This document shows positions 1 through 52,942 of a stretch of DNA of 52,942 bases, in pieces. The position numbers were made by a program, and so were the translations under genes. The stretch is taken from the IMG/VR virus record IMGVR_UViG_2563366966_000001; one strand, 5' to 3'. This DNA is from a virus (lineage: Duplodnaviria; Heunggongvirae; Uroviricota; Caudoviricetes). The notes beneath the pieces are model-generated. The model had not been told where the DNA came from. It ran no database searches and saw only the letters and a list, made by a program, of their open reading frames with translations. Numbering within the stretch: the stretch's first letter is position 1; each line of letters opens with the position of its first letter.

Positions 1-1284
1 TTACAGACTTCTGGAAGGTTGCGCAGCTCTTACAACACGCGGTTGATCTTCCGCAGCGTCTTCCAGCGCACTTAAATCACGGTCTTTCACCTCTGGCATT
101 TTCAGCGCAGAGATTAAACCAATCACTGAATATGCCATGATCATAATGGCGATCGGATACCAGGATTCCGTCATGGTGCAGAAAATACCCGCCAGGATAG
201 GACCAAAACCGGAAGCGATAAGACCACCAATTTCTTTAGAAATAGCCATCCGGGTAAAGCGGTTTTTACAGCCGAACATTTCTGCCATGGTAATGTTTTC
301 CAGAGCAAATAATCCCAGCACCGCACAGTTATGAATCACAATCAGTGCAACCATAATGGTGCTCGGGGCATAGCTTTTATCTACAATGATAGAAAGCATT
401 GGCCATGCCAGCACAATCGCGGAGGTATTCATAATAATATACGGGATCCGGCGACCAATTTTATCGGATAACCAACCAAGGAACGGAATGGTCATAAAGC
501 CGAGAATCGAACTGATCATCAATGCATCTGTTGGAATTGCTTTGTTAAACAATAACGTCTGCACTAAATAGCCTGCAAGGAAAGTCTGAATTAACCCGGA
601 GTTACCCGCCTGACCAAAACGCAGCCCTGTTGCCAGCCAGAAGGATTTGCTCTGGAACATGCTACCAGCAGGTGCAGGTTTTGCTGTCGGTTGGTTACTG
701 TCGTTAACCTTCTCAAAGACCGGGCTTTCTTTCAGATTCATACGCAACCAGATAGCAAAGACCATCACGACAACACTCGCCAGGAACGGTATACGCCATC
801 CCCACGCCAGCAGTTCCTCTTTACTGAGAATGAAGAACATAAAGGCCCAGATTGCCGTTGCGCTCAAGGTTCCGCAGTTAGTTCCCATAGCCACAAATGA
901 GGAGATAATTCCGCGCTTACCTTTTGGCGCATATTCCGCCAGCATCGTACCGGCACCGGAAATTTCCGCACCTGCACCCAACCCCTGAATAATACGCAAC
1001 GTCACCAGCAAGATGGGTGCAAAAACACCAATCTGTGCATAGGTCGGTAACACACCAATTAAGGTGGTACAGATCCCCATCATGGTGATGGTAATAAAGA
1101 GCACTTTTTTACGCCCTATTCTGTCGCCCATTTTGCCGAAAATAAATGCTCCGACAATACGCGCCACATAACCTGCACCGTAGGTTCCCATTGCCAGAAT
1201 TAACGCCATTGCCGTTGATGATTCAGGAAAAAATATTTCATGAAACACTAACGCTGCGCCGAGCGAATATAACTGGAAATCCAT
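1..1284 (-). CDS. ydfJ: MFS-family metabolite transporter (YdfJ-like); N-terminus apparently replaced at the prophage junction
   Basis: 427-aa ORF with multiple hydrophobic helices and the MFS loop motif G-D-R-I-G-R-K-K after TM2; from memory of ShiA/ProP-type homologs about 30 N-terminal residues are missing, and an in-frame stop lies 2 codons upstream of the ATG. Confidence 0.85.
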   Translation of the reverse strand: MDFQLYSLGAALVFHEIFFPESSTAMALILAMGTYGAGYVARIVGAFIFGKMGDRIGRKKVLFITITMMGICTTLIGVLPTYAQIGVFAPILLVTLRIIQGLGAGAEISGAGTMLAEYAPKGKRGIISSFVAMGTNCGTLSATAIWAFMFFILSKEELLAWGWRIPFLASVVVMVFAIWLRMNLKESPVFEKVNDSNQPTAKPAPAGSMFQSKSFWLATGLRFGQAGNSGLIQTFLAGYLVQTLLFNKAIPTDALMISSILGFMTIPFLGWLSDKIGRRIPYIIMNTSAIVLAWPMLSIIVDKSYAPSTIMVALIVIHNCAVLGLFALENITMAEMFGCKNRFTRMAISKEIGGLIASGFGPILAGIFCTMTESWYPIAIMIMAYSVIGLISALKMPEVKDRDLSALEDAAEDQPRVVRAAQPSRSL

Positions 1285-1888
1285 AATTCACAGGTGTTTT
1301 TTCCCATCCTGTGGTTTCCTTGGCGTTTTCTAGGTTTTTTCAGATAGTTGCATTTTTTTAAAAAGCATCCTAAGTTCGATCTCAGTGTCTATCTGGGGCC
1401 TATTTCTGTCCCATATATGCCCCAAAAAAACTCCCCAACAGATAAGTAGTTTTTTCATGGATTTATGCGTAAAATCAAGAACGGCTGGAAATCATTCAAT
1501 ACTCACACTATCGAAAAATTTACCAGCCAATCGCAGCACGTTCTTGCATAAGGCGTGTCTGCGGTTTTTCAACTATTCAGATACATCACTCCCATCACAT
1601 TCATTCCTCCGCATCAAAGGCATATAGGCTATATCACCTTGATATTTTTCTTTTTCAGATAAAAACTGTTATCTATGTATACTTTTAAACCCAATCCGTG
1701 TAGAGTCTCTGCATAAGATAGTTTGCAGTTGCCGCTTCAGCTTGCGCCATAAACCGCCTGATTTTTGCTGCCACCTGTTAGCATTCCTGTATACCTGAAA
1801 CGACAATGTTTATCTACGAACTTTAAGAACACCCAAGATAAAAATTGTCAACTATATCATATATAACACATTACTAATTCGAGGCTAT

Positions 1889-2002
1889 ATGAACAGCATA
1901 CTGATAATCACATCTCTCCTTATCATATTCAGCATTTTTAGTCATGCCCTAATAAAATTAGGGATTGGCATATCCAATAACCCAGACAAAACCGATGTAT
2001 AA
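1889..2002 (+). CDS. Candidate small hydrophobic protein (37 aa, one predicted TM helix)
   Basis: ATG at 1889 preceded by GAGG 5 nt upstream; translation [37 protein letters not shown]; not in ORF track because under 60 aa. Confidence 0.35.
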
Positions 2003-2070
2003 GTCAACATATCCTGAATCAGACATACAATATCGCAATGAAAATCAATAATATTTTAAGGAATATCTTC

Positions 2071-2304
2071 ATGAAATCAAAAGACACCCTAAAGTGGTTC
2101 CCTGCGCAGCTTCCTGAAGTAAGAATTATCCTAGGGGATGCTGTAGTGGAAGTAGCAAAACAGGGAAGACCTATCAATACCAGAACATTGCTTGATTACA
2201 TTGAAGGAAACATAAAGAAAAAATCATGGCTGGATAACAAAGAATTATTACAAACAGCGATATCAGTTCTTAAAGACAACCAAAATTTAAATGGTAAAAT
2301 GTAA
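2071..2304 (+). CDS. ydfK: Cold-shock-associated prophage protein YdfK
   Basis: ORF track 2038..2304; internal ATG at 2071 with AAGGA upstream gives the 77-aa form matching my memory of K-12 YdfK. Confidence 0.8.
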   Translation: MKSKDTLKWFPAQLPEVRIILGDAVVEVAKQGRPINTRTLLDYIEGNIKKKSWLDNKELLQTAISVLKDNQNLNGKM

Positions 2305-2469
2305 TATAATAAACTTACTTTTTTATCATTTTTCCACTTTAACAACATTTTGCTCCACTTTTCCACGACCAAACAACTTGAAATCTGGTTAAAATAACAC
2401 GCAACACTATTCTTCTTCCTTGAGTCCGCCCGGAACTCGAAAAACAAACCGAGTTAAAGCCATTTTTCA

Positions 2470-2483
2470 CAAAATCGATTTTG
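2470..2483. promoter_or_regulatory. Perfect 14-bp palindrome CAAAATCGATTTTG upstream of pin (candidate operator or recombinase site)
   Basis: Exact dyad symmetry read from sequence, about 140 bp upstream of the pin start codon. Confidence 0.3.
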
Positions 2484-2620
2484 GGTCTCACCAAAATTAC
2501 GGGGTTGCATACGCATTCGTTTATTTTCGAACGTGTACATACAAATATGCACAAAAATAATCATAATTATTTTCTGAGATGCATTATGATATGAACACCA
2601 ATTTCGTATAGAGTCTCACT

Positions 2621-3211
2621 ATGTCTCAAATTTTTGCTTACTGTCGGATATCAACGCTGGATCAGACCACCGAAAATCAACGCCGGGAAATCGAAAGTGC
2701 AGGTTTTAAAATCAAACCTCAGCAAATAATCGAAGAACACATTAGCGGCTCAGCAGCAACCAGTGAGCGTCCTGGTTTTAACCGGTTGCTTGCTCGCCTG
2801 AAATGTGGTGATCAATTGATTGTGACAAAACTGGATCGCCTTGGTTGTAATGCAATGGATATCAGGAAAACAGTGGAACAACTGACCGAAACAGGTATCA
2901 GAGTGCATTGCTTAGCATTGGGGGGCATTGACCTGACCAGTCCAACAGGAAAAATGATGATGCAAGTAATTTCAGCAGTCGCTGAATTTGAACGAGACCT
3001 TTTACTTGAACGCACTCATTCCGGGATAGTAAGAGCCCGCGGCGCAGGGAAACGTTTTGGTCGACCACCTGTGTTAAATGAAGAACAGAAACAGGCGGTA
3101 TTCGAACGAATTAAGTCAGGTGTAAGTATAAGTGCCATTGCCCGGGAATTCAAAACCTCGCGGCAAACCATTTTAAGAGCCAAAGCAAAACTTCAGACAC
3201 CTGACATATAA
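2621..3211 (+). CDS. pin: Serine recombinase, Pin/Gin/Hin-type DNA invertase
   Basis: 196-aa ORF; N-terminal resolvase catalytic motif (YCRISTLDQ) and C-terminal HTH; matches Pin-family invertases from memory. Confidence 0.9.
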
Positions 3212-3308
3212 AAAATAATCTCGGTGTGAGATGCTTTACGTCTTCCAAGCCCCCTTCCTTGCCGTAAATGGAAAGATACATCTAATTATAGAATTTATAT
3301 GTTTTACC

Positions 3309-3884
3309 CTACGGCAGTGCTGGCCATTCAATATCCTGTGCAGTTGACGTATCAACACGGTTCAGCAATACCCGATACTTTTTCCATGCTTCCAGCAACG
3401 AGATTTCTTCCTCCGTTGCAATTTCCAGATCTGCAGCATCCTGAAGCGGCGCAATATGCTCACTGGCTACCTGCATCAGGTTGTTTTTTGTTTCTTCCGC
3501 CTCCCGGATCCGGAACAGTTTTTCTGCTTCCGTATCCTTCACCCAGGCTGTGCCGTTCCACTTCTGAAACTCCCCTTCCGGCGATAACCAGGTAACATTT
3601 TCCGGTAACGGACCGAGTTCAGAAATAAATAACGCGTCGCCGGAAGCCACGTCATAAACCGTTTTACCCCGATGATCTTCAACGAGATGCCACGATGACT
3701 CATCACTGTTGAAAACAGCCACGAAGCCAGCCGGAATATCTGGCGGTGCAATATCGGTACTGTTTGCTGGCAGACCTGTATGAGGCGGAATATATGCATC
3801 ACCTTCACCAATAAATTCATTAGTTCCGGCCAGCAGATTATAAATTTTTATGGTCCGTGGTTGTTCACTCATTCTGAATGCCAT
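3309..3884 (-). CDS. tfa: Tail fiber assembly protein Tfa
   Basis: 191-aa ORF highly similar to lambda Tfa as recalled; immediately downstream of stf. Confidence 0.9.
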
Positions 3885-6800
3885 TATGCAAGCCTCACAA
3901 TATAGTTAAATGCGATGTTTTTGACGGTGTTTTCCGCGTTACCAGCAGCGTTAACGGTGATGGTGTGTCCATGTGAACCAATCGCAACGGAGTGCGTATG
4001 AGCACCAATACCGACAGTATGTGCATGTGCGCCTGCGCTTGCAGCAGTGCCGGACAGCGAGTGGGTATGAGCACCATCTGATGATGTCTTCCCTGCATTA
4101 CGAGTCTGGCCACTACCGCTTGTTGTGCTCATAATCCCCGCGCTTAGATTTGAAATCGCGGTATAACCATTAGGGAAAATGCTCGTGTTCGTGCCACCAA
4201 ATGCACCGGAACTCTTGTGTTGGTGCGCACCGGCACTATTTGCGGTCCCGCTAATACTATGGGTATGCGCCCCGGTGTTATTCGTGGATTTGGTTCCGTA
4301 ATCAAACGACGATGTGGTTTTCGTCCCCAAATCCGTACTGGATGCGCTGGCGCTGTGGGTGTGCGATTTAATGCCGTCCTGTTCCTGAGATAATACGGCC
4401 CGACCACTGGCGGGCTTGCCCTTAATCGTCCAGCCACGCATATCAGGGATCACGCCTGACGGATAAGCAACTGCAAGTTTCGGGTATGCAGATTTGTCAA
4501 AAGTCTGCCCCTGCATCAGGGCATAACCAGACGGAACGGTATCTGATGGCCACGGGATTGGTGCACCGACTGGATAAAACTCTGCAGGAGGATGAGCCGA
4601 GGTGTAAAGCTGCGCCCACGGCGACCAGTTTGCGTCGGTCGTATCCCGTCGTGAACGAATAAATGCCGGAGCATGAGCACCGCTTGTACCACTCCAGCCG
4701 ATGAGTAACTCACCTTCGCCAACGGCTGTCATCCCTTTCAGGTGAATGATATTTCCATACGCTGTTGGATATCCGTTGTTATACACCTCGTATAACTCAA
4801 GACCTGCTGCCCCCTGCGTATTGTCTGTCAGCGCGGTTACCCGACCTTTTGAAGCCAGATTAACTGATGATACTGCTGTTCCACCTGACGGTAACGCCCC
4901 GATCTCTGATGCCGTTGGCTTATTTCTGGAGTTATAGTCCCTTCGCCAGCCAGGTGAATAATCTGTTCCGTGATTAATATAGGTAAACTGGGCGTTAGTT
5001 GTTCCACCACCAGTGGAGGTGGTCGGTGTGGTAATGCGGATCGTCATCGCTGACTTTATCCCCATTACTTCAATGACAGCTCCGGCGAGATGAATATTAC
5101 CGCAGTCAGTATCAGTAATGATTTTATTATTGCCATAAGACCAGGAACCCTTGCACATCCAGTATGGATGGTTAAATGCTCCCTGAGAATCCAGCCACTC
5201 GATAAACTGTGCAGTCGTCCAGTTTCCTGTTGTTGTGCTTACTGACCCACCGAAGGCACGGCAGGCACCAATATTTTTCGTAAAGGTATCTTTGCCAGGG
5301 ATATCCGCACCGTTCTGATCTTTCTGCAGACGTTTCTCAGCATTGTCATTGGCTGCTTTTACTGCCTTTGGTGTCGCGGCAAGCGTTTCAGACGTGCTGT
5401 TGGTCGCGCTGCTTAGCTGGATTATCCCTTTCTGTGCTGTCGTTGCATCCTGTGCGGTGTATTTCCCGTTAGCCAGGTCATACGCGGCCTTAACGGCTTT
5501 TGGTGTTGCCGCCAGTGACTCGGAAGTGCTGTTAGTCGCACTACTGAGCTGTACTATCCCCTTTTTCGTCGTGCTCGCATCCTCAAGCGCCACGGCGGAT
5601 GCAATATCCTCTGCCCGTTTTGCTGCTGTCTCGGCGCGCGTTGCTGCGGATTCTGCCGTACTTTTGCTCTGAGCTGCCGCCGTCGCACTGCCAGCAGCCT
5701 CTGTCGCCTTCGTGGATGCCGTCGTGGCGCTGCTCTTCGCTGCTGACGCTTGTCTGGTCGCCTCATCTTTTGAAGCAGACGCCGATGATGCCGATGACGC
5801 CGCCGAACTGGCTGACGATGCGGCAGCCGTTTTTGAGGATTCTGCGCTGGTTTCCGACGCTTTCGCGTTCGTTTCGGATGTCTTCGCTGCGGAAGCAGAC
5901 CTCGCTGCTGCGCTGGCCTGTTCAGTGGCTTCGCCAGCCTTCGTTGTGGCTGTTGAAGCAGACGATGCGGCGCTTTCTGCCGATTTTCCGGCGGCGGTGG
6001 CACTGGCTGAGGCCTGCCCGGCACTTGTTGACGCTGCACTGGCAGACGACGCAGCCGCTGTTTTTGAGCCTGCCGCAGCCGAGGCGCTCTGTCCCGCTGC
6101 CGTTTCAGAAGACCTGGCGTTCGTCTCTGACGTTTTTGCCGCCTTCGCGGAATTTCCTGCCGCTGTTGCCGAGGAAGCTGCGCTACTGGCGCTCGAGGAT
6201 GCGTTCGTTTCTGATGATTTTGCCGCCTCTTTTGAAGCCGACGCATCCCGGGCTGAGGTGGCAGCTTCTGACGCTTTCGTGGTCGCGGTGGATGCAGAAG
6301 TGGCTGCTGATTGTTGTGACGCTGCAGCATTCGTTTCTGACGTTTTCGCGGCACTGGCACTGGTAGCTGCCGCGCTTTTTGAGGACTCTGCAGCGGCAGC
6401 ACTTTTTGATGCTTCAGTGGCCTTTGTTGATGCCGTTCCTGCGCTGGAAGACGCTGACTGAGCCGACGAAGCGGCCTGTCCGGCTGACGTGCTGGCTGCG
6501 CGTGCTGAGCCTGCAGCATCAGTCGCATGGGTTGCCGCCTCACGGGCAGATGTGCCGGCATCGCCGGCTGACTTCTTCGCGGCTGCCGTGTTCTGTGCCA
6601 CCGCGGACGCGTTACGCGCCACCTCTTCCACCATCAGTTCAAAACGGCGCAGAGCCTCCGGACGGGCATCATCCTCCGTCATGGCACCGAGAAAATCATT
6701 CAGCGTACCGGGTCGGGAATCTTCATACACGGTGATGGTCCCGGCATGTGACGGCGGGAATCCTTCCACCAACAGAATAACGCTGTACTGACCGTACTCA

Positions 6801-22278: not shown

Positions 22279-25959
<3,681 letters not shown>

Positions 25960-25985
<26 letters not shown>

Positions 25986-26505
25986 TCAGCAACCCCGGTA
26001 TCAGTTCATCCAGCGCGGCTGCTTTGTTCATGGCTTTGATGATATCCCGTTTCAGGAAATCAACATGTCGGTTTTCCAGTTCCGGAAAACGCCGCTGCAC
26101 CGACAGGGGGATCCCGTCGAGAATACTGGCAATTTCACCTGCGATCCGCGACAGCACGAAAGTACAGAATGCGGTTTCCACCACTTCAGCGGAGTCTCTG
26201 GCATTTTTCAGCTCCTGTGCGTCGGCCTGCGCACGCGTAAGTCGATGGCGTTCGTACTCAATAGTCCCTGGCTGGAGATCTGTCTCGCTGGCCTGCCGCA
26301 GTTCTTCAACTTCCCGGCGCAGCTTTTCGTTCTCAATTTCAGCATCCCTTTCGGCATACCATCTTATAACGGCGGCAGAGTCATAAAGCACCTCATTACC
26401 CTTGCCACCGCCTCGCAGAACGGGCATTCCCTGTTCCTGCCAGTTCTGAATGGTACGGATACTCGCACCGAAAATGTCAGCCAGCTGCTTTTTGTTGACT
26501 TCCAT
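25960..26505 (-). CDS. Nu1: Terminase small subunit Nu1
   Basis: 181-aa ORF matching lambda Nu1 (N-terminal wHTH). Confidence 0.95.
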
Positions 26506-26700
26506 TGTTCATTCCACGGCCAAAAACAGAGAAAGGAAACGACAGAGGCCCAAAAGCTCGTTTTCAGCACCTGTCGTTTCCTTTCTTTTCAGGGGGTATT
26601 TTAAATAAAAACATTAAGTTACGACGAAGAAGAACGGAAATGCCTTAAACCGGAAAATTTTCATAAATAGCGAAAACCCGCGAGGTCGCCGCCCCGTAAC
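26506..26700 (-). other. cos site (cosB with R sites, cosN cohesive-end sequence at 26683..26694)
   Basis: Minus strand reads GGGCGGCGACCT followed by the AT-rich region and GGAAACGACAG-type R elements, near-identical to lambda cos as recalled. Confidence 0.85.
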
Positions 26701-26729
26701 CTGTCGGATCGCCGGAAAGGACCCGCAAA

Positions 26730-26746
26730 ATGATAATAATTATCAT
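26730..26746. promoter_or_regulatory. Near-perfect palindrome ATGATAAT-A-ATTATCAT (Fur-box-like) between cos and ynfO
   Basis: 16 of 17 positions dyad-symmetric; contains GATAAT hexamers typical of Fur boxes; about 150 bp upstream of the RHH gene. Confidence 0.3.
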
Positions 26747-26893
26747 CTGCATGTCACAACGTGCATCTACGCCATCAAACCACGTCAAATAATCAATTAT
26801 GACGCAGGTATCATATTAATTGATCTGCATCAACTTAACGTAAAAACAACTTCAGACAATACAAATCAGCGACACTGAATACGGGGCAACCTC

Positions 26894-27127
26894 ATGTCAA
26901 CGAAGAACAGAACCCGCAGAACAACAACCCGCAACATCCGCTTTCCTAACCAAATGATTGAACAAATTAACATCGCTCTTGAGCAAAAAGGGTCCGGGAA
27001 TTTCTCAGCCTGGGTCATTGAAGCCTGCCGCCGGAGACTGTGCTCAGAAAAAAGAGTTTCTTCTGAAGCAAACAAAGAAAAGAGTGACATTACTGAATTG
27101 CTCAGAAAACAGGTCAGACCAGATTGA
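26894..27127 (+). CDS. ynfO: Small ribbon-helix-helix (Arc/MetJ-like) DNA-binding protein, YnfO-like
   Basis: 77-aa ORF; N-terminal IRFPNQMIEQINIALEQKG fits the RHH beta-strand and helix pattern; position matches K-12 Qin ynfO from memory. Confidence 0.7.
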   Translation: MSTKNRTRRTTTRNIRFPNQMIEQINIALEQKGSGNFSAWVIEACRRRLCSEKRVSSEANKEKSDITELLRKQVRPD

Positions 27128-27184
27128 AGCAATTTAGATAATCGTGCAGACTACGCCCCCTCATATCACATGGAAGGTTTATCT

Positions 27185-27595
27185 ATGGATCAGGTAGTCA
27201 TTTTTAAACAAATATTTGATAAAGTTCGAAACGATTTAAACTATCAATGGTTTTATTCTGAGCTAAAACGTCACAATGTCTCACATTACATTTACTATTT
27301 AGCCACAGAGAATGTTCATATTGTATTAAAAAATGATAATACAGTGTTATTAAAGGGCCTAAAAAACATTGTGTCTGTCAAATTTTCAAAGGATAGGCAT
27401 CTTATAGAAACGACCTCTAATAAGCTGAAATCCAGAGAGATCACATTTCAGGAATACAGAAGAAACCTTGCTAAAGCAGGAGTTTTTCGGTGGGTTACAA
27501 ATATCCACGAACAAAAAAGATATTACTATACCTTTGATAATTCATTACTATTTACTGAAAGCATCCAGAAAACTACACAGATCTTACCACGCTAA
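27185..27595 (+). CDS. ydfO: DUF1398-family prophage protein YdfO
   Basis: Track ORF 27170..27595; ATG at 27185 gives the 136-aa form matching remembered YdfO/YbcV family. Confidence 0.75.
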
Positions 27596-27746
27596 ACCAT
27601 AACGTCCGGCTTCTCTCACTCCTGAGCCGGACTGCATTGGTTTAATAAAAACCATCAACAATTGTGATTTAGATATTCGGAACCATTCAAATATAACAAA
27701 ACCCCGTAAAAACGAGGTTTATGGATAAATTTTATTATTGAATACA

Positions 27747-27920
27747 TCAGATTAAATTAATCTTGACATCATAGCTTTCAAGACCCGTCATTTTTTCCCG
27801 TGCGGTAAACTGAATACTGGTAACTTCTTTCCCGGTCTTTTTCTTAAGTTCAATAATTTTTTTTGTTATATATTCAGAAATATCTGCTTCTGCTTTTGTT
27901 TTTAAGTTTTCAATATTCAT
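27747..27920 (-). CDS. gnsB: GnsA/GnsB-family protein
   Basis: 57-aa ORF not in track; translation MNIENLKTKAEADISEYITKKIIELKKKTGKEVTSIQFTAREKMTGLESYDVKINLI. Confidence 0.8.
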   Translation of the reverse strand: MNIENLKTKAEADISEYITKKIIELKKKTGKEVTSIQFTAREKMTGLESYDVKINLI

Positions 27921-28091
27921 CATTTCCTCTTTTAGTCTGTTATGACTTTCCAGTTACACAGTAAGTCGATTATATGGTGCAAACGTGTAAAAGATAAGAT
28001 GAAACATCGCAATAATCAACATACGATAGTCTAAATTTTACACAAACAGACAAAGAGAATTTTCCTGAATTATCAATGCAATAGCATCAAA

Positions 28092-28322
28092 TCAACTCAA
28101 GAGCCTTATTGCTGCTTCCAGAATTTCTTCTGAAGTAACATGTCGATCCGCGGCTACATAAATGACTTTATGATCTCCGGTCAGAGATGGAAACCCTGCG
28201 GCCATTACAGTAAGGTGTGTTTTTTCGCCATTTGGATATTCACGCATGATGGTGTTAACTCCAGTCATCGCTGGCACTACCACTGCTGGTTCAGAGTTAA
28301 AAAAAACTATGATTTTTTTCAT
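28092..28322 (-). CDS. ynfN: Cold-shock-inducible prophage protein YnfN (start uncertain)
   Basis: Track ORF 28092..28364 begins with TTG; ATG at 28322 gives 76 aa (MKKIIVFF...); a 51-aa form from ATG 28247 matches my memory of K-12 YnfN. Confidence 0.6.
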   Translation of the reverse strand: MKKIIVFFNSEPAVVVPAMTGVNTIMREYPNGEKTHLTVMAAGFPSLTGDHKVIYVAADRHVTSEEILEAAIRLLS

Positions 28323-28593
28323 GATGTTACCGTAGTATGTGAGTATCCATCGAATAGACACCAAGCAAAAAAGCTCCCGAAGGAGCCTTCATTTTCACTT
28401 TTTTAAATCCAACGACAGACGGCTGGCATTTAAGTATTGTGAAATATTATCAAATGTAATCATCATTGATTTACAAAAGATACATTTTGCCCCGAAAGGA
28501 TTCATGTCAGAAACATCAAAAGATGATGTTCTATACTGGGAACCATGACAACACGGGCATCTAAAGTGAATATGGTTTGTAATATTGTCTACC

Positions 28594-28806
28594 TCAAAGC
28601 GCCACTACATGAACAGCGGCAGGACCTTTAGGTCCGTTCTCAATACCAAATTCAACTTCCTGATTCTCAGTTAATGTTTTGAAATCGTTGCTCTGAATTG
28701 CTGAGAAATGGACAAACACATCTTTGCTGCCATCTTTCGGCGTGATGAAACCAAAACCTTTTTCAGGGTTAAACCATTTCACTAAACCAGTCATTTTGTT
28801 AGACAT
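28594..28806 (-). CDS. cspI: Cold shock protein CspI (CspA family)
   Basis: 70-aa ORF with RNP1/RNP2 motifs (KGFGFI, VFVHF). Confidence 0.9.
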
Positions 28807-29168
28807 AATTATTACCTTTTGAAGAAATTAGCCCTTGGGCAGAATGGTCCGAAAAAAAATATCAGAGAGAAAAACCAACAAGGAAATCTCAAGAGGTACA
28901 AATAATAAAATTATAACAATGACTGCTTCAGATAAATTTGTAACAAACCAGAACACCATTAACGCATGATTAACCACCCATAGCAAGGATTACTTTTGTA
29001 AAGAAAAACACAGCAATGAAAGAATAGCTTTATTTATTAATAAAACGTGTCATTCTGATTAAGACCTTTTATCTTACCCTTAAGATTTCAGGAATTTTGG
29101 CTCATGGAAGAGTCCTTTTTATTTAAATTTTACATTCCGCGATGTAAATGTTCCGATTTAATATTACC

Positions 29169-30192
<1,024 letters not shown>

Positions 30193-30196
<4 letters not shown>

Positions 30197-30504
30197 AGAT
30201 ATTTATGATGAGGACGCTCGTGCTTATTGGCAGGATTTTCAATCTTAAAGGAGTACTGATGCTGCAGATAAGACTCAACTTTTTCTGACAATTTTTCTGC
30301 TACTTCCAGGAAGACTTGCCGGACGCTCCTTCTGGCTGCTGCCTCATAAAACTCCAGCGCAGCTCCTTCAACACGGTCCATGGCGACATCCAGGTCAAAA
30401 ATTTCACCGTCAAAGCGTTCTTTGTCCTGTAAGGCTACAGTTACCGTAACTTTATTCTCAAAATTACGGACTCCTTTCACAACCAGTTCATAGTCTTGAG
30501 TCAT
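30193..30504 (-). CDS. ydfR: Prophage protein YdfR (DUF1327)
   Basis: 103-aa ORF between holin and endolysin, matching Qin YdfR from memory. Confidence 0.75.
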
Positions 30505-30508
30505 TGGA

Positions 30509-30724
30509 TTACTCTCCTCTCGCAGCCTTACGCCTGTCTTCTTTAATCTTGAAATAAAGATTTGTCAGATACGTCAGCAGGCCAAAAACCAGGCTACCCA
30601 GCACACCGATTGCAGCCCACTGTGACGGAGTTACTTTATCGAGTAACTGCAATGCCCAGAAACCAGCATTACCCGCCGATGTGCCATAGGCAACACCTGT
30701 TGTTAACTTATCCATTGATTTCAT
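30509..30724 (-). CDS. S: Class II holin (phage 21 S-type pinholin) with dual-start motif
   Basis: ATG at 30724 gives 71 aa starting MKSMDKL (two Met codons for antiholin/holin); two TM segments; track ORF extends upstream. Confidence 0.85.
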
Positions 30725-30943
30725 ATCCTCACCCCGATGTACACGGATGGTGCAATATGTTTGAAAAGATCGGAGTCTACGGGGTAGTTTTGACAGCACA
30801 CGTTGTTCTCAACGGCGCTAAAAAAACATACACATTAAAAATGTGGGTAATTATTTTGAAAGAAAGTCATATATAAAATAATAATACGAGAAATGTTTTC
30901 ATATTTAGTGTACTGTATACGGCCATTTATACAGGAAAAGCCT

Positions 30944-31114
30944 ATGTCAGAACGTAAAAACTCAAAATCACGCCGTAATTATCTCGTTAAATGTTCCTGC
31001 CCAAACTGCACCCAAGAGTCAGAACACAGTTTTTCAAGAGTACAAAAAGGTGCCCTTTTGATCTGCCCTCATTGCAACAAAGTATTCCAGACAAATCTTA
31101 AAGCTGTAGCCTGA
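30944..31114 (+). CDS. ynfU: Small zinc-ribbon protein YnfU
   Basis: 56-aa product from ATG 30944 (AGGAAAAG upstream); CxxC...CxxC motif (CSCPNC, CPHC). Confidence 0.7.
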   Translation: MSERKNSKSRRNYLVKCSCPNCTQESEHSFSRVQKGALLICPHCNKVFQTNLKAVA

Positions 31115-31170
31115 TTGATTTTATTAGTAACAAGTATTTTTTATATTTTAATAATATATTTAAAGCAGAT

Positions 31171-31195
31171 AATAAAAAACCCGCCTGAGCGGGTT
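31171..31195 (-). terminator. Rho-independent terminator downstream of cspB
   Basis: Hairpin AACCCGC-CTGA-GCGGGTT at 31178..31195 followed on the minus strand by a T-run. Confidence 0.6.
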
Positions 31196-31477
31196 TGAGA
31201 TTGTGGTGCTTTTTGTGGGAGTCATCCACTTACGCACTTTGTTTTGCCATGCCAGCAGTTAGCTTCTGCTGTAAAACTATTCATGCAGCAAACCTGCACT
31301 TCACCACAATGGTTAGCATACTTTTCCTGATTAAGATTTTGCCAAATATGCTAGCCATTGTTTCATGTATTGGACCTCCTTACTTTTTATTAAAGAGATC
31401 CAATATTCACTACTCTGTCCGTATCTCTACTCAGGCATCAGCCTTCTTCGTTATCGTATACAGACGAGCGATGAATT

Positions 31478-31693
31478 TTAATCAGTAATGATGACATTTG
31501 CTGCTGCAGGACCTTTAGCACCACTCTCTATAGAGAAGGTAACCTTTTGACCTTCAAATAAGGTTCGATAATTATCATTCTGAATCGCAGAAAAATGCAC
31601 AAACACATCTTTACTACCATCAACAGGAGAAATAAAGCCGAAACCTTTATCAGCGTTAAACCATTTTACTAAACCAGTCATTTTATTTGACAT
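31478..31693 (-). CDS. cspB: Cold shock protein CspB (CspA family)
   Basis: 71-aa ORF with RNP motifs. Confidence 0.9.
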
Positions 31694-31993
31694 TCTACAT
31701 TCCTTAACTTGAGCCTTTCGGCATAAATGGTTTGCATAACAGAAACGACTTCGTACTTAATTGGAGAGACTCAAAGAAGGAATAAGTGAATAACACCTGA
31801 AATGAGAACTGCTTTAGTAAACTACTTCGTATATCGTCTGTTCTTCAAACCGACGCAATCATTAACGCATAGTTGAACATATGAAGCAATGTTTATTTTA
31901 GACATCCAGCCATCTTCAACCCCATCAAAAAACTATAGCTTTCTTCAGGAACGTGTGTATAGTGCGCCAAGTTATCAGTATTAAGGAATTTTT

Positions 31994-32206
31994 TTGTCCC
32001 GTAAAATGACAGGAATTGTCAAAACCTTTGACGGCAAAAGCGGCAAGGGTCTTATCACCCCATCCGATGGTCGTATCGATGTCCAGCTTCATGTTTCAGC
32101 GCTCAATCTCCGCGATGCAGAAGAAATTACCACCGGATTACGCGTGGAATTTTGCCGGATAAATGGTCTGCGTGGCCCTTCAGCTGCCAATGTTTACCTT
32201 TCATGA
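31994..32206 (+). CDS. cspF: Cold shock protein family member CspF
   Basis: 70-aa ORF, divergent CspA-family member. Confidence 0.85.
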
Positions 32207-32260
32207 GCTATATTAAAGCTTTAATTTCAGGCCCCATCGGATCACACATGGAGAGTTTTT

Positions 32261-32350
32261 ATGAATAACCCCGTCTGTCTTGATGACTGGTTGATTGGCT
32301 TTAAAAGCTTATGCTGTACTTTGGCCGTAATAGCTCTGCTAATAATATAA
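32261..32350 (+). CDS. Candidate small hydrophobic peptide (29 aa)
   Basis: ATG at 32261 with GGAGAG 6 nt upstream; translation [29 protein letters not shown]. Confidence 0.3.
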
Positions 32351-32496
32351 TAAGCAGACTCATTGTGTTTAGGGACATTGTACTGGAAGAAAACATTTTA
32401 AACATCAGGCAAATAACCAAGTCACCAGCTAAATAATAAGTTAACAGACATGAGTCCCGGGATGAGATTCAACATTACCATTGCCCCATTTAAAGC

Positions 32497-32532
32497 ACAA
32501 AACCCGCTCATCAGCGGGTTTTCTACTTTTTC
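32497..32532. terminator. Hairpin terminator AACCCGCT-CATC-AGCGGGTT (candidate tR-prime for late operon and/or cspF terminator)
   Basis: Perfect 8-bp stem at 32501..32520; T-rich tract on plus strand after the hairpin. Confidence 0.55.
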
Positions 32533-32567
32533 TTAACGTCGGGTATACAAAGCCCATCGTTGAAAAA

Positions 32568-32596
32568 ATTTTATCCATATTTTTTGAAAAATGCAA
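32568..32596 (-). promoter_or_regulatory. Candidate late promoter pR-prime immediately downstream of Q
   Basis: Minus strand TTGCAT-17 bp-TAAAAT located 32..60 nt after the Q stop codon. Confidence 0.5.
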
Positions 32597-32627
32597 ACAT
32601 CATGTCGCCATCTTCAGCAAAAATCAT

Positions 32628-33380
32628 TTATCTCGTCACCTTCCTCAATTGCGCTTCCGCGTATGCTTCTTCCTGCCAGCACTTTGTTACCAGTTTACCA
32701 ATGACGTCCGCATACCCCTTATACCACTGATAATCGGTCAGGTCTGGTACCAGCTTCTGGACATGACGTCGTGCCAGCGTGGTCGGTAAACGACTAAACC
32801 GGTTTCCATTACAACGCCCACAAATCTTATATACCGGTACGCCATGAAACCGGGTTCTTTTTTCATCCAGAACAATCCCTTTACCCTTACACCCTCTGCA
32901 CGCTGTGCTGGCTTCGCCCTTACCATGGCAATGCTGACATAGTTCCTTCACCCATTCTTCCTTGATTACAGATTCCCCGCGTCTGTAGTGTTTCACCACT
33001 TCGCGCAATACATTATAAAATCCCGTACCTGAACAATGCTCACAGCGAGCCTTACTTGCCGCAGACCTGGAGTAATCAGCAAAGGCAAAACTCACGAGGT
33101 AAGGAATAATCTGTAACCGGATTTCTTCACTCAATTTGTTCAATGTCGGGTTATCCAGTGCCATCGCGTAATTTAGCAGGCCTTCAATCGCAAACTGAGG
33201 GTCCTGAACACCAACTTTTGCCAGAAATAAGGCCAACCCAAGTGGTGCTTTCGACTGCACCATCCCCTGCGCTGCCATTACATCCGTAATTGTTAAACAA
33301 CCGGTGCCTGTCGCTGGAGCGTCATCGCTCAATTTTGGAGATTTTGGGGAGTAATATTTTGGTAAGGCTTCAAGGTTCAT
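32628..33380 (-). CDS. Q: Late-gene antitermination protein Q
   Basis: ATG at 33380 gives 250 aa; Cys-rich zinc-binding region (CEHCSGTG...CQHCHGKG...CRGCKGKG); position upstream of lysis cassette. Confidence 0.85.
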   Translation of the reverse strand: MNLEALPKYYSPKSPKLSDDAPATGTGCLTITDVMAAQGMVQSKAPLGLALFLAKVGVQDPQFAIEGLLNYAMALDNPTLNKLSEEIRLQIIPYLVSFAFADYSRSAASKARCEHCSGTGFYNVLREVVKHYRRGESVIKEEWVKELCQHCHGKGEASTACRGCKGKGIVLDEKRTRFHGVPVYKICGRCNGNRFSRLPTTLARRHVQKLVPDLTDYQWYKGYADVIGKLVTKCWQEEAYAEAQLRKVTR

Positions 33381-33393
33381 GCTCGTTCTCCAC

Positions 33394-34443
33394 TTACGCC
33401 AGTACGCCAATTGTCAGCGCGCGATCGATAAAACGAAATATCAGCTCCAGTTGGGAGCCATACTTATCTTCAAATGCCACTGTATCCGTATGCAGCTCGT
33501 TGTGATGCTTTCTGCACAAAGGCAACACAAAGAGATCATGTGCTTTTGTTCCCATTCCGCCCTGCCCGTGACCAATCAGATGATGCGGATCGTCGGCTGG
33601 CATACCGCAGCAAGCACACGGCTGTGTCTTAACCCAACGTGTGTATTTCTCCTTAACCCAGCGGCGACGTTTAGGCAGCTTCATGAAAGATTCCGGAGAC
33701 TCTGGATCAACGGTGATGCTTACCACCGTCTTTTCCTGTGGTGATTTTTGTTGCTGGTGGGCGTAAGGCAACGGTGCAAGATTTTTTGTGCGTTGTTTCA
33801 ATATGCTGGTGGCGGTCTGCTCTCCCGGTACGATGTCGCTTTCGCGGTACACCGAGCAGATTTTTTCCGCTGGTAATCCCAGCGAACGACGCGATACAGC
33901 CTCAGGTAGTGCATCCACCACCTGATTGCAGACCGCCCACCAGGATAATTCAGCCAAAGATAATTCCCGCTCCTGCGTACCGCTTATTGCGTGACGGATG
34001 ACGTCAATCACCCATGCTGTCAGATTTTGTTGAGCAAGCAGCTCCAGTGATTCCGATGTCTGGTCACGCAGTTGGTTGTCGCAGTGCCAGCACAACACCA
34101 TTGCGCCGGTACCATAACGGTGAATGACTGTTTCAGTGTGATGGTAATCGCCATTAGGCCACTGGCAGGATGTAACATGACGTAATAGCCAGTCGGACAA
34201 TGCGCCAACGCCGCCAGCAGCACGAATCACCCGTTCGTTACTAAAAAACGGCAGCAATGTTTTGTCTTCCGCCAGCGGCTGGCGAACGGCAGGAACGACT
34301 CCGGATGGCAGATTACGCATGCTTTTTGGTTCCGGTTCCACCAGCACTCGAGGATTATGAAATATCTGTATGGATTCACGGCCCGGCTTAAGGACCACCA
34401 GCCCAAGCTCAGGCACCAGAACAGGTCTAAGTAATACCCGCAC
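33394..34443 (-). CDS. ydfU: DUF968-family protein YdfU with C-terminal HNH-like Cys/His motif
   Basis: Track ORF 33394..34482; GTG at 34443 lies 1 nt after the rem stop and gives 349 aa; motif CACCGMPADDPHHLIGHG...CRKHHNELH. Confidence 0.7.
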   Translation of the reverse strand: MRVLLRPVLVPELGLVVLKPGRESIQIFHNPRVLVEPEPKSMRNLPSGVVPAVRQPLAEDKTLLPFFSNERVIRAAGGVGALSDWLLRHVTSCQWPNGDYHHTETVIHRYGTGAMVLCWHCDNQLRDQTSESLELLAQQNLTAWVIDVIRHAISGTQERELSLAELSWWAVCNQVVDALPEAVSRRSLGLPAEKICSVYRESDIVPGEQTATSILKQRTKNLAPLPYAHQQQKSPQEKTVVSITVDPESPESFMKLPKRRRWVKEKYTRWVKTQPCACCGMPADDPHHLIGHGQGGMGTKAHDLFVLPLCRKHHNELHTDTVAFEDKYGSQLELIFRFIDRALTIGVLA

Positions 34444-34444
34444 G

Positions 34445-34723
34445 TTACCTCCAGATCCGTTGCTGGAAAGTGCGGGACGCACGTGGTGGGCGTTCGGAAT
34501 AAGGCAGCCTGACAGAGATTATCCAGTGCCGATAGTCGAGACTGAGAGCTTTCTTAACCTCGAACCCGCGCCTGCGGTAAGAATGAATCAGCCATTCGGC
34601 CTGTTCTGCAGTGCATGGAGGGTGCTGGAACCATTCAGACTTGAATGCGTGAGAATACCGCCCGTGCGTGCAGGCAAGAACGGGCGAATTATCAGAATTG
34701 TAATATTTTGCGTTGCGTGCCAT
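34445..34723 (-). CDS. rem: Prophage protein Rem
   Basis: 92-aa ORF matching Qin Rem from memory; start codon not resolved. Confidence 0.7.
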   Translation of the reverse strand: MARNAKYYNSDNSPVLACTHGRYSHAFKSEWFQHPPCTAEQAEWLIHSYRRRGFEVKKALSLDYRHWIISVRLPYSERPPRASRTFQQRIWR

Positions 34724-34789
34724 CGGTTTTCTCCGGTGGCACGGTGTTACTCAGCGGGAGTTCAGCCCCGCGCAAGATTGTAGATGAGT

Positions 34790-35041
34790 TTATTCTCCTG
34801 AAAAAGCAGAAAAGCCAGCTTTTATTCCGATCTCTTTCAATGCCTGTAATGAAGTGACAAACTCACCTTCGCGCAAGATAAATCCGTCCGTGACCCGAGC
34901 ATCCACAAAATTAATTAACGCAGCCCCATTCTTTCGCAAACACATAATGCGGTAATGACTAACAAGATTTCCATTTTCAACGCACACAGCATAGAGGCCA
35001 TCTTCACAAAAAATTTTACGCAGTTCTTCGATGTTCATCAT
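34790..35041 (-). CDS. Hypothetical protein (83 aa), unknown function
   Basis: ORF with tandem ATG start, GGAAGGA 7 nt upstream, and a minus-strand TTGAAG-18-TAGAAT promoter-like element at 35120..35149. Confidence 0.6.
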   Translation of the reverse strand: MMNIEELRKIFCEDGLYAVCVENGNLVSHYRIMCLRKNGAALINFVDARVTDGFILREGEFVTSLQALKEIGIKAGFSAFSGE

Positions 35042-35160
35042 CAGAATCCTTCCGGATAATTAGCTCTCCCCTTTAAGGGACCATCCCTCTTATCCCTGCG
35101 CGCTACTTAAGTATTTTTGATTCTATTCCGGCACCGTCCAGAACTTCAAACGCGTTGAAA

Positions 35161-35189
35161 ATAAAAACAAAAACCCGCCGAAGCGGGTT
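35161..35189 (-). terminator. Rho-independent terminator downstream of hokD
   Basis: Hairpin AACCCGC-CGAA-GCGGGTT at 35172..35189 followed on the minus strand by a T-run. Confidence 0.65.
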
Positions 35190-35257
35190 AAGTGCGGGTG
35201 CGTTGAGGATGCCTGCCACATCAGAGGTGGCGAGGGATTTCTCCCCCGCCGGGTCTC

Positions 35258-35413
35258 TTACTCCTCAGGTTCGTAAGCTGTGAAGACAGCGACCTCCGTC
35301 TGGCCGGTTCGGATTCGTACCTCGCAGAGGTCTTTCCTCGTTACCAGTGCCGTCACTATGACGGTTAAACAGATGACGATCAGGGCGATTAACATCGCCT
35401 TTTGCTGCTTCAT
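35258..35413 (-). CDS. hokD: Hok-family membrane toxin HokD (RelF)
   Basis: 51-aa ORF not in track; translation MKQQKAMLIALIVICLTVIVTALVTRKDLCEVRIRTGQTEVAVFTAYEPEE; immediately downstream of relE. Confidence 0.9.
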   Translation of the reverse strand: MKQQKAMLIALIVICLTVIVTALVTRKDLCEVRIRTGQTEVAVFTAYEPEE

Positions 35414-35484
35414 AGCCTGCTTCTCCTGTCAACGCAAAGCAGAAGTGTCACCTTCGGTGCGAAACAGAGATGTCATGCTTTGGT

Positions 35485-35772
35485 TCAGAGAATGCGTTTG
35501 ACCGCCTCGCTATATACTTCCGAGCGTTCTCTTTTCCCAACAGAAATCACGAAAACGACAACTTTCTCGTCTATAACCTGGTATACAAGGCGATAGCCTG
35601 AAGACCGGAGCTTAATCTTGTAACAATCAGGCATACCACGGAGCTTGTTTGCTTCAATCCGGGGTGACTCAAGTACTTCAACCAGCTTCTTTTTCAACTG
35701 TTCACGTACCGTCGAGCCCAGCTTTCGCCATTCCTTTAGTGCCCGCTCGTCAAAATCCAGAAAATACGCCAT
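35485..35772 (-). CDS. relE: mRNA interferase toxin RelE
   Basis: 95-aa ORF matching RelE. Confidence 0.95.
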   Translation of the reverse strand: MAYFLDFDERALKEWRKLGSTVREQLKKKLVEVLESPRIEANKLRGMPDCYKIKLRSSGYRLVYQVIDEKVVVFVISVGKRERSEVYSEAVKRIL

Positions 35773-36011
35773 CAGAGTTCATCCAGCGTCACACGTACTG
35801 GCTTAGGATTACGAAGCCGTTCTTTCACTATCTCCACAAGTTCAGCATCTTCATCACTCAGGAGTGTCTGTTTGAACGGCAAGCGTTCATTGTCAGCGAT
35901 ATACTCGAGCATGAGACGAAGCGCTTCAGAAGGAGTTACACCCATTTTTTCAAGCGCGGCGTAAGAACGCGCTTTAAGTTCATCGTCAATACGCAGGTTA
36001 ATGCTACCCAT
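35772..36011 (-). CDS. relB: Antitoxin RelB (RHH)
   Basis: 79-aa ORF matching RelB; overlaps relE start. Confidence 0.95.
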   Translation of the reverse strand: MGSINLRIDDELKARSYAALEKMGVTPSEALRLMLEYIADNERLPFKQTLLSDEDAELVEIVKERLRNPKPVRVTLDEL

Positions 36012-36035
36012 GTCTTACACCTCTTGTAATTACAA

Positions 36036-36341
36036 ATGTCATTACAAGTATCGCACTACAACATGCTTAGGGCAAGTCACGAAGGAAGTCAGAAAGTAGT
36101 CGTAAGAACGGTGATCACTGTCCGCTTTGTGCCAGGAGCAGCCATTGCTAAGTCCATCCTGTATTGTGCAGGTCAGCTCGTTTTTAAAGAGTCCGGCCAT
36201 CATCTTACTGGTACAGACACCATATACTTTGTGACGGTCAGGCTACATATGCACAACTCAACTTATTCATCTATTTTTTGCTTTAGCATGTCAGTGTTGC
36301 TTTCTCGTCGGCGGGTGAGCGGTGACCTGACCTGTCGATAA
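36036..36341 (+). CDS. ydfV: Hypothetical protein YdfV-like
   Basis: 101-aa ORF at the position and size of K-12 ydfV; no independent support for coding. Confidence 0.4.
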   Translation: MSLQVSHYNMLRASHEGSQKVVVRTVITVRFVPGAAIAKSILYCAGQLVFKESGHHLTGTDTIYFVTVRLHMHNSTYSSIFCFSMSVLLSRRRVSGDLTCR

Positions 36342-36493
36342 AGGAACGTAACACGTTTTATGCAACACCCGCATGCGGCAGAAAATTATTGCCGAACGTT
36401 TACCCCTGTCAACAAGCTTTACTTTCTGAGGCGCGCCAGCCCGCGAGGAAAACAATCTGAACATCAAACAATTAATGACACAAGAAATACGAT

Positions 36494-36520
36494 TAAAGAT
36501 TTTTTTGTGCATGCCGATAG
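36494..36520 (+). promoter_or_regulatory. Sigma-28 (FliA) promoter of flxA
   Basis: TAAAGATT-11 bp-GCCGATAG matches the sigma-28 consensus TAAAGTTT-N11-GCCGATAA; 24 nt upstream of the flxA ATG. Confidence 0.75.
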
Positions 36521-36543
36521 TGCTTTTTTAAAAGGAGAAATCT

Positions 36544-36876
36544 ATGTCTGTCACAATTCAGGGAAATACCTCAACCGTTATTTCAAACAACTCCGCCCCG
36601 GAAGGAACATCAGAAATAGCCAAAATCACAAGACAAATTCAGGTGCTGACTGAAAAGCTTGGGAAAATCTCATCGGAAGAGGGGATGACGACACAGCAGA
36701 AAAAAGAAATGGCTGCATTGGTACAGAAGCAAATTGAAAGCCTCTGGGCTCAACTGGAGCAGTTGTTAAGGCAGCAGGCAGAGAAAAAGAATGAAGACGC
36801 GACAGTTCAGCCTGATAAAAAAGAAGAGAAAAAAGACGATACAAATACCGCTGGCACCATTGATATTTACGTCTAA
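36544..36876 (+). CDS. flxA: FliA-regulated protein FlxA
   Basis: 110-aa ORF with AGGAGA RBS, matching FlxA. Confidence 0.85.
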   Translation: MSVTIQGNTSTVISNNSAPEGTSEIAKITRQIQVLTEKLGKISSEEGMTTQQKKEMAALVQKQIESLWAQLEQLLRQQAEKKNEDATVQPDKKEEKKDDTNTAGTIDIYV

Positions 36877-36890
36877 GTGACAGCCGTATT

Positions 36891-36914
36891 GTGGCCCTCA
36901 TCGGGCCACTTTTC
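36891..36914 (+). terminator. Rho-independent terminator of flxA
   Basis: Hairpin GTGGCCC-TCATC-GGGCCAC followed by TTTTCG. Confidence 0.65.
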
Positions 36915-36963
36915 GCCATCAGCCTTTTCTTTAAAGACATATTATCTTTGTATCATTTCTGAT

Positions 36964-38812: not shown

Positions 38813-38985
38813 GGGGCTTTTCTCTATCTGCCGTTGGTGTCCATGCCCGAGGCAGATAGCCTCAAGCACCCGCAGTCATTCTACTTAACTAAGATTTCCC
38901 CGCAAACCGTTTTTGTCCAGCACAGTAAATATCCAACTAAACCAATGGAGTTCGCTGTATTTACCGCCAGTATTCAATGCACATG

Positions 38986-39000
38986 ACCGCCATGAACACC
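38986..39000. repeat. 15-bp direct repeat ACCGCCATGAACACC, left flank of IS2-like element
   Basis: Identical 15-mer immediately outside both ends of the IS2-like element. Confidence 0.85.
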
Positions 39001-51627: not shown

Positions 51628-51661
51628 CTAAAAGCCACACTAACTAATGAGAGAAGTTGAA

Positions 51662-52942
51662 ATGAAATATCCGACAGGCGTGGAAAACCATGGAGGGAAA
51701 TTACGTATCTGGTTTGTTTATAAAGACGTAAGAGTCAGGGAAAATCTGGGGGTTCCTGACACAGCAAAAAACAGGCGCGTTGCAGGTGAACTACGCTCCT
51801 CTGTTTGTTACGCAATAAAAACTGGTGTTTTCGACTATGCAAAACAGTTTCCCTCCTCACGCAATCTGGAAAAATTTGGTGAGGCCCGACAAGATTTAAC
51901 CATAAAAGAACTGGCTGAAAAATTTCTGGCACTGAAAGAAACTGAAGTCGCCAAAACATCACTCAACACATACCGTGCCGTCATCAAAAATATCCTGAGC
52001 ATAATCGGTGAAAAAAATCTTGCCTCATCGATTAATAAAGAAAAATTACTGGAGGTTCGTAAAGAGTTACTGACTGGATACCAGATCCCCAAAAGTAACT
52101 ATATTGTTACACAACCAGGGAGATCGGCTGTAACTGTAAATAATTACATGACAAATCTTAACGCCGTGTTCCAGTTTGGTGTTGATAACGGTTACCTGGC
52201 AGATAATCCGTTTAAGGGGATCTCGCCATTAAAGGAATCAAGAACCATTCCGGATCCTCTTTCGCGGGAAGAATTTATCCGTCTTATCGATGCGTGCAGA
52301 AATCAGCAAGCAAAAAATTTATGGTGTGTTTCTGTTTATACTGGAGTTCGCCCTGGTGAGCTGTGTGCACTTGGATGGGAGGACATAGATCTGAAAAATG
52401 GAACAATGATGATCAGGAGAAATTTAGCAAAAGACCGTTTCACGGTACCAAAAACACAGGCGGGAACCAATCGGGTCATTCATCTTATTAAGCCAGCAAT
52501 CGACGCTCTCCGGAGTCAGATGACATTAACGAGACTGAGCAAAGAGCATATCATTGATGTTCACCTCAGAGAGTATGGCAGAACAGAAAAACAAAAATGC
52601 ACCTTTGTTTTTCAACCTGAAGTGTCAGCGAGAGTAAAAAATTATGGTGACCATTTTACCGTTGACTCAATAAGGCAGATGTGGGACGCAGCGATAAAAC
52701 GTGCCGGACTCCGCCATCGAAAATCATATCAGTCGAGACATACTTATGCCTGCTGGTCGCTGACAGCTGGTGCTAACCCGGCATTTATAGCAAACCAGAT
52801 GGGCCATGCAGATGCGCAAATGGTATTTCAGGTATACGGAAAATGGATGTCTGAAAACAATAATGCACAGGTAGCTTTGTTAAATACACAGTTAAGCGAG
52901 TTTGCCCCAACCATGCCCCATAACGAAGCAATGAAAAATTAA
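51662..52942 (+). CDS. int: Tyrosine recombinase (phage integrase)
   Basis: ATG at 51662 with GAGAAG RBS; C-terminal catalytic residues R...HxxR...Y (SRHTYACW...HADAQMVFQVYGKW); stop codon is the last 3 bases of the window. Confidence 0.9.
   Translation: MKYPTGVENHGGKLRIWFVYKDVRVRENLGVPDTAKNRRVAGELRSSVCYAIKTGVFDYAKQFPSSRNLEKFGEARQDLTIKELAEKFLALKETEVAKTSLNTYRAVIKNILSIIGEKNLASSINKEKLLEVRKELLTGYQIPKSNYIVTQPGRSAVTVNNYMTNLNAVFQFGVDNGYLADNPFKGISPLKESRTIPDPLSREEFIRLIDACRNQQAKNLWCVSVYTGVRPGELCALGWEDIDLKNGTMMIRRNLAKDRFTVPKTQAGTNRVIHLIKPAIDALRSQMTLTRLSKEHIIDVHLREYGRTEKQKCTFVFQPEVSARVKNYGDHFTVDSIRQMWDAAIKRAGLRHRKSYQSRHTYACWSLTAGANPAFIANQMGHADAQMVFQVYGKWMSENNNAQVALLNTQLSEFAPTMPHNEAMKN

Follow-up and report, generated by a model that had tools for sequence, protein, structure and literature searches.

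A prophage that integrates inside a protein-coding gene can cut the gene short, restart it or fuse it to coding sequence of its own, and the left end of the DNA analysed here (52,942 nt, referred to below as the window) raises the question of which of these befell the host transporter gene ydfJ. The first-pass annotation had placed a prophage junction inside the 5' end of ydfJ and proposed that the prophage supplies a new start codon, giving a fused or truncated transporter. Our analysis gives a probability of roughly 90% that window positions 1270-1300 are one host-prophage junction, produced by integration of a Qin-family lambdoid prophage into codons 28-31 of ydfJ. Coordinates of the features discussed are given in Table 1.

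Table 1. Features of the 52,942-nt window, with the basis of each assignment
Feature	Position	Strand	Basis or remark
ydfJ 3' remnant, codons 29-455 plus stop	1..1284	-	427-aa MHS-family MFS ORF; ORF listing and translation
att core TTATGGATTTC (ydfJ sense), 11 bp	1276..1286	-	Exact-match scan; contains the Met29 ATG
Phage-side att arm adjoining the core (putative)	1287..1564		Kept among otherwise different ydfJ-site prophages
In-frame TGA from the phage arm	1288..1290	-	Minus-strand translation of 1-1329: ...GKKHL*IMDFQ
IS009 RNA inside tfaQ	3343-3541	-	Rfam
Side tail fibre gene, 1,026 aa	3884-6964	-	Long Ala/Ser/Thr-rich repetitive segment
cspA-type thermoregulator leaders (cspI and cspB regions)	28567-28952; 31462-31854	-	Rfam
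sok antitoxin RNA adjoining hokD	38700-38871	-	Rfam
DicF sRNA	48137-48188	+	Rfam
Excisionase gene, 83 aa	51376..51627	+	Pfam DUF1233 putative excisionase, E = 1.6e-31
Lambda-type tyrosine integrase gene, intact	51647..52942	+	PGAP start 51662, 426 aa

The interrupted gene and its intact counterpart

Strains 23CRST035 and ESY002 carry an uninterrupted ydfJ of 1368 nt, encoding 455 aa, within a contiguous rspA-rspB-ydfJ-ydfI cluster. Intergenic gaps in the intact cluster measure only about 57 and 88 nt, and gaps this short suggest organisation as an operon. The cluster has been linked to L-gulonate/hexonate catabolism; RspA and RspB reportedly figure in the L-gulonate pathway described by Wichelecki et al. 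in 2014.

Intact YdfJ begins MTIEKHERSTKDLVKAAVSGWLGTALEF-M-DFQLYS.... When the two proteins were aligned, the window ORF corresponded to residues 29-455 of the intact protein, identical at 427 of 427 positions and followed by the stop codon, which forms the exact left edge of the window. The remnant is without the 28 N-terminal residues, and its product starts with MDFQLYS (longer start string, MDFQLYSLGAAL). At the codon level, GAA TTT ATG GAT TTC in the intact gene stands against TGA ATT ATG GAT TTC in the window, and similarity to intact ydfJ ends at approximately window 1286-1290. The interval of 1270-1300 proposed in the first-pass annotation brackets this breakpoint, and its estimate that about 30 N-terminal residues including part of TM1 were missing was close to the actual loss of 28 residues, which takes away the first half of TM1. 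The comparison it had called for, against uninterrupted alleles, returned the 455-aa form in 23CRST035 and ESY002 and no uninterrupted ydfJ of 427 aa.

To place the breakpoint in a wider sample, window 900-1700 was compared by megablast with 5,426 complete E. coli genomes, and matches were obtained in 5,423. The left junction, scored as a match to at least 80% of window 900-1700, was present in 2,565 genomes. In many genomes without this prophage arm the match broke at window 1290 (position 391 of the query). The junction is a genuine homology breakpoint across thousands of genomes and no chance feature. A 300-bp probe spanning the empty site was contiguous (attB) in 2,009 of the 5,426 genomes (37%) and split at the same point in most of the remainder, giving an occupied/empty polymorphism at ydfJ of 63% to 37% among complete E. 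coli genomes.

Attachment site

An 11-bp identity, TTATGGATTTC, is common to attB and to both prophage junctions. In an exact-match scan it occurred once in intact ydfJ from 23CRST035 and from ESY002, at both ends of K-12 Qin (3278-3288 and 23747-23757 in the extracted locus), and 37 nt past the int stop codon in strains cq9 and F41. The codons with which the remnant opens, ATG GAT TTC, fall within the core. Both an overlap of the core with the first codons and a repeat of it beyond the integrase gene had been anticipated in the first-pass annotation, and both were found. The left boundary of the 'cryptic prophage Qin' in the K-12 record, 1632277, corresponds to the first core base at window 1276. 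Phage and host are also partly alike in the sequence flanking the core (TGAATTTATGGATTTCCAG in attB, TGAATT-ATGGATTTCAAG in attP), and this partial identity fits the longer att site described by Nakamura et al. (PMC8112680). Rfam and tRNA scans returned nothing at the junction, so the att site is not of the tRNA or sRNA type.

The right edge of the window is the exact stop codon of the integrase gene. The right junction, with its core copy and rspB flank, lies beyond that edge, and it was read from genomes that match the window at 100% identity across the integrase region. The integrase gene is present in 3,057 of the complete E. coli genomes, and its region is 100% identical in many genomes, with rspB next. 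Strains cq9 and F41 have rspB after their 100%-identical int and carry the ydfJ remnant at the opposite end of the prophage. Past the int stop, in ydfJ sense, the sequence in cq9, F41 and K-12 reads ...GGCACTGCGCTTGAATTTATGGATTTC / AAGAGTCATGCGTGTTAA.... By comparison with these strains, a second core copy should lie 38-48 nt beyond the window end, and the DNA to the right of the window would consist of 37 nt, GAAATCCATAA, ydfJ codons 1-28 in reverse complement and then rspB.

At this integrase-side junction the first 31 codons of ydfJ continue into five phage codons and a stop, forming the 36-aa YnfP (MTIEK...EFMDFKSHAC). Annotations for Qin, for the 427-aa ydfJ and for ynfP (b4534) stand at matching places in the K-12 record, and the 36-aa YnfP has been detected as a protein in K-12 (PMC6001520, Table 1).

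On the phage side of the left junction, other prophage types matched the query through the junction and broke only at query position 525 or 665, which correspond to window 1424 and 1564. A prophage at the same ydfJ site in Escherichia ruysiae was 98.6% identical over window ~1285-3420. Such an arm, common to different ydfJ-site prophages, is as expected of an att arm, and the segment listed in Table 1 may hold binding sites for integrase or accessory factors. A k-mer search for arm-type repeats in the reconstructed attP gave nothing convincing.

The E. ruysiae junction, just upstream of position 3001 of its locus, reads TTATGGATTTT. Its core ends in T instead of C, as does the corresponding stretch of intact ydfJ in E. 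whittamii; if the attB of E. ruysiae also carries T, strand exchange would have taken place 5' of that base. A sequence deposited as 'MAG: Caldithrix sp.' (SMXE01000224.1, match 2205-3485) contained the E. coli ydfJ remnant at 100% identity, with the junction also identical, and some 2.2 kb of the Qin arm at 99.6% identity. This match is almost certainly E. coli contamination or mis-binning.

Start codon and lost N-terminus

The remnant ATG, at window 1282-1284, is the native Met29 codon of YdfJ and lies inside the core common to attP and attB. Orthologues were recovered from about 75 enterobacterial species, including Citrobacter, Enterobacter, Klebsiella, Leclercia, Kosakonia, Salmonella arizonae, Serratia and others. 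Met29 and the surrounding EFMDF were kept in every one of them, and all encoded the N-terminal segment. Residues 16-28 (AAVSGWLGTALEF), which form the first half of TM1 and are lost from the remnant, were invariant across genera.

In ydfJ sense, the window sequence leading into the remnant reads ...AAA CAC CTG TGA ATT ATG GAT TTC CAG.... The in-frame stop two codons upstream of the ATG, which the first-pass annotation had rightly pointed out, belongs to the phage arm. Because of this TGA, the remnant ORF opens at Met29 and there is no translational fusion into it. A tblastn search with the N-terminus for a substitute anywhere in the window found only residues 29-40, with all other matches at E of at least 0.26. 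The phage arm brings only the TGA and unrelated upstream DNA, and no replacement gene end. Of the fused or truncated transporter that had been proposed, truncation by 28 residues held and fusion did not, given the in-frame TGA and the lack of N-terminus-like sequence in the window. Direct reading of the sequence revealed nothing resembling a Shine-Dalgarno motif in the roughly 15 nt that precede the remnant ATG.

Model of insertion

The element showed the marks of a Qin-family prophage at ydfJ: a position with rspB on one side and the 3' part of ydfJ on the other, sequence identity to Qin, a direct repeat of the core at the prophage ends (the right copy seen through related genomes) that is single in the empty site, and an arm-binding tyrosine integrase with an excisionase adjoining one att site. 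The insertion splits the rspA-rspB-ydfJ-ydfI sugar-acid gene cluster, and we propose that the phage's own arm-binding tyrosine integrase made it by recombining across the 11-bp core. Codons 1-31 of ydfJ remain beside rspB, about 53 kb off, as the YnfP stub with its five phage codons, and codons 29-455 remain beside ydfI as the window ORF. The insertion parts the ydfJ remnant and ydfI from rspAB and from any promoter serving the cluster, and the remnant has probably lost its promoter and its normal translation start. Precise excision by Int and Xis would be predicted to restore intact ydfJ.

State of the truncated transporter

The 427-aa product scored 453.5 bits against the metabolite/H+ symporter model TIGR00883 (cut-off 443.45), aligned from profile position 7, and intact YdfJ scored 462.9 bits. 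The MFS_1 alignment began at profile position 33 for the truncated protein compared to position 2 for the intact protein, and the truncated protein started at position 37 of the ShiA model and position 40 of the ProP model. With the invariant AAVSGWLGTALEF gone and the profile starts shifted, the remnant is without the full TM1 of the 12-helix MFS core. A Kyte-Doolittle plot, which stood in for topology prediction, showed TM1 to be weakly hydrophobic, with residues 31-47 still compatible with a membrane span. A PDB sequence search gave only distant MFS matches, to the phosphate transporter 7sp5 and to SV2A, at E of about 1e-5, which were of no use for placing the ends of TM1. Given the profile alignments and the missing start region, the 427-aa product is best seen as a remnant, most likely crippled or non-functional, and not as a new gene product. 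PGAP routinely labels the remnant 'incomplete; missing N-terminus', as in strain F41.

Alternatively, truncated YdfJ could be expressed from prophage signals as a working and possibly altered transporter, and the insertion would then be lysogenic conversion rather than inactivation. The ORF is uninterrupted by stops in every phage-split ydfJ allele examined, and the curated K-12 annotation carries the remnant as a CDS (b1543, 427 aa). Changes at the transcript level and a knockout phenotype have also been reported in K-12: ydfJ RNA responds to DicC induction, and a ydfJ knockout was reported to be more azithromycin-resistant. A transporter table gives YdfJ the entry 'K+ *', which is said to derive from work on K+ paths by Buurman et al. 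in 2004. However, an intact ORF is no guide to function here, because the interrupted allele of the window and K-12 is nucleotide-identical to the intact ESY002 allele over 1,284 nt and has had no time to decay. A dN/dS comparison of interrupted with intact alleles, aimed at selection on the remnant, has no power owing to the same identity, and divergence in other alleles possibly predates insertion. Promoter-like sites in window 1200-2700 numbered 7, against 5.7 +/- 2.3 expected from shuffled sequence, and in the combined promoter and terminator scan of this interval for phage-borne signals that might drive the remnant, counts were at chance level. The deleted segment is, moreover, invariant across genera and starts TM1 in the family profiles. 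We consider a working transporter unlikely.

Truncation as the preferred reading bears mainly on annotation hygiene. What is annotated as 'YdfJ' in K-12 and many other strains is a 427-aa remnant without an invariant part of TM1 and, presumably, without the operon promoter, and knockout or transport studies of ydfJ in K-12 are therefore not informative about the native transporter of 455 aa.

The occupied/empty polymorphism might itself be functional, either because the prophage acts as a reversible switch or because the 427-aa remnant, driven by phage-arm signals, is a working transporter of altered properties; taken together, these possibilities appear very improbable. The first of them is active lysogeny, in which conditional precise excision would restore ydfJ and with it the rspAB-ydfJ-ydfI cluster. 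Elements that excise precisely to restore a gene in other bacteria include phi10403S in comK and skin in sigK. The int and xis ORFs are intact in the window, unlike intQ in K-12, recombination at the core would give back the exact gene, and identical ydfJ alleles occur in occupied and empty states, with 37% of complete genomes empty. Nevertheless, there was no sign of regulated excision, ordinary gain and loss would account for the polymorphism equally well, IS elements lie in the early region of the prophage, and lambdoid phages often integrate inside genes, mostly to no regulatory effect. Active lysogeny at ydfJ is very unlikely.

Hardly any credence can be given to a phage-host fusion or re-started transporter for which the prophage supplies the start and perhaps new N-terminal codons: the ATG in the core is also present in attP and could derive from phage DNA depending on the point of strand exchange, but every intact ydfJ has this ATG as its codon 29, as do orthologues from about 75 species, the phage-arm TGA lies two codons upstream of it, nothing in the window resembles a coding sequence for an N-terminus, and the 15 nt or so before the ATG hold no Shine-Dalgarno-like motif. 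Aligned with each other, the intact and interrupted alleles contradict a new start codon of phage origin, and the corresponding claim of the first-pass annotation was abandoned in favour of native Met29 inside the shared core.

The integrated element

The integrase matched the Pfam families Arm-DNA-bind_2 (E = 3.7e-22) and Phage_integrase (E = 3.9e-18). For the excisionase gene, PGAP calls the 100%-identical region of cq9 'excisionase family protein'. The window was 99.9% identical to K-12 Qin over 1-4839, 25977-37497, 46111-49598 and 51783-52942. Two blocks are missing from K-12, one of 21 kb for head and tail (4839-25977) and one of 8.6 kb (37497-46111). K-12 also carries IS2 in place of a stretch of about 2.2 kb upstream of int (window 49598-51783), and intQ is a pseudogene in K-12 as a result. 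From this comparison, K-12 Qin looks like the window element minus the 21-kb morphogenesis block and the 8.6-kb early-region block, with IS2 exchanged for the stretch upstream of int, and the window presents a fuller relative of the K-12 cryptic prophage.

Insertion sequences were seen in the early region at 39000-40337, 41255-43587 and 37313-38626. One is of IS3 type (HTH_Tnp_1 and rve ORFs) and is not carried by strain F41, which is nearly identical in other respects; the others are an element of the IS66 family (tnpA/tnpB/DDE_Tnp_IS66) and another transposase-like ORF. Despite intact int and xis, the prophage is probably not fully lytic-competent.

Five Rfam matches reached the gathering level (Table 1). 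About 600 nt from the junction, positions 1889-2002 on the plus strand encode a hydrophobic small ORF of 37 aa, ynfT (named 'ynfQ' in PMC6001520). The ynfT ORF has been detected as a protein in K-12, and the identical 37-aa sequence is that of ynaM, between ynaE and ttcC (PMC6001520, Table 1). The repeat segment of the side tail fibre gene yields spurious long ORFs of up to 335 aa in other frames and on both strands, overlapping 5343-6791. In K-12, stfQ is a truncated version of the side tail fibre gene, fused toward nohA.

Comparison with known insertions

Earlier publications already describe the junction, the loss of 28 codons and the att site. Ramisetty & Sudhakari (2019) described ydfJ at Qin as 'lacking 28 codons', the ydfJ-Qin junction is covered in the legend to Fig. 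4E of PMC6379469, and ydfJ is listed as a Qin or lambdoid insertion site in comparative genome papers (PMC3032704, PMC2608844).

The closest relative is K-12 Qin (ydfJ b1543, ynfP b4534), which shares with the window the insertion site, the 11-bp core and a junction region 99.9% identical over window 1-4839. Its remnant is nucleotide-identical to that of the window over 1,284 nt and gives the same 427-aa product. The two elements differ in content: the window prophage is about 53 kb long with a head/tail block and intact int and xis, whereas K-12 Qin is 20.5 kb long with intQ disrupted by IS2.

The PPydfJ lambdoid prophages of STEC and EPEC likewise integrate into ydfJ (PMC8112680). These carry effector loci and often stand in tandem clusters, and the window prophage does neither. 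Using PCR and sequencing, Nakamura et al. (2021; PMC8112680, S7 Fig) determined an att site of 18-19 bp for ydfJ prophages, aligning attP, attL, attR and attB with a prophage-free strain as the source of attB. In contrast, the core in our alignment is only the 11-bp exact stretch, with imperfect flanks.

Two other lambdoid prophages, e14 in icd and Rac in ttcA (PMC6379469, Fig. 4), resemble the window prophage in having integrated inside a coding gene, with the core in the coding sequence. An in-frame replacement of the gene end, of the kind seen with e14 at icd, was not found for the window prophage by reading of the TGA or by tblastn of the N-terminus. Both e14 and Rac bring a substitute terminus that leaves the host gene complete or nearly so, whereas the window prophage brings a stop codon and no substitute for the 28 codons that it removes from ydfJ.
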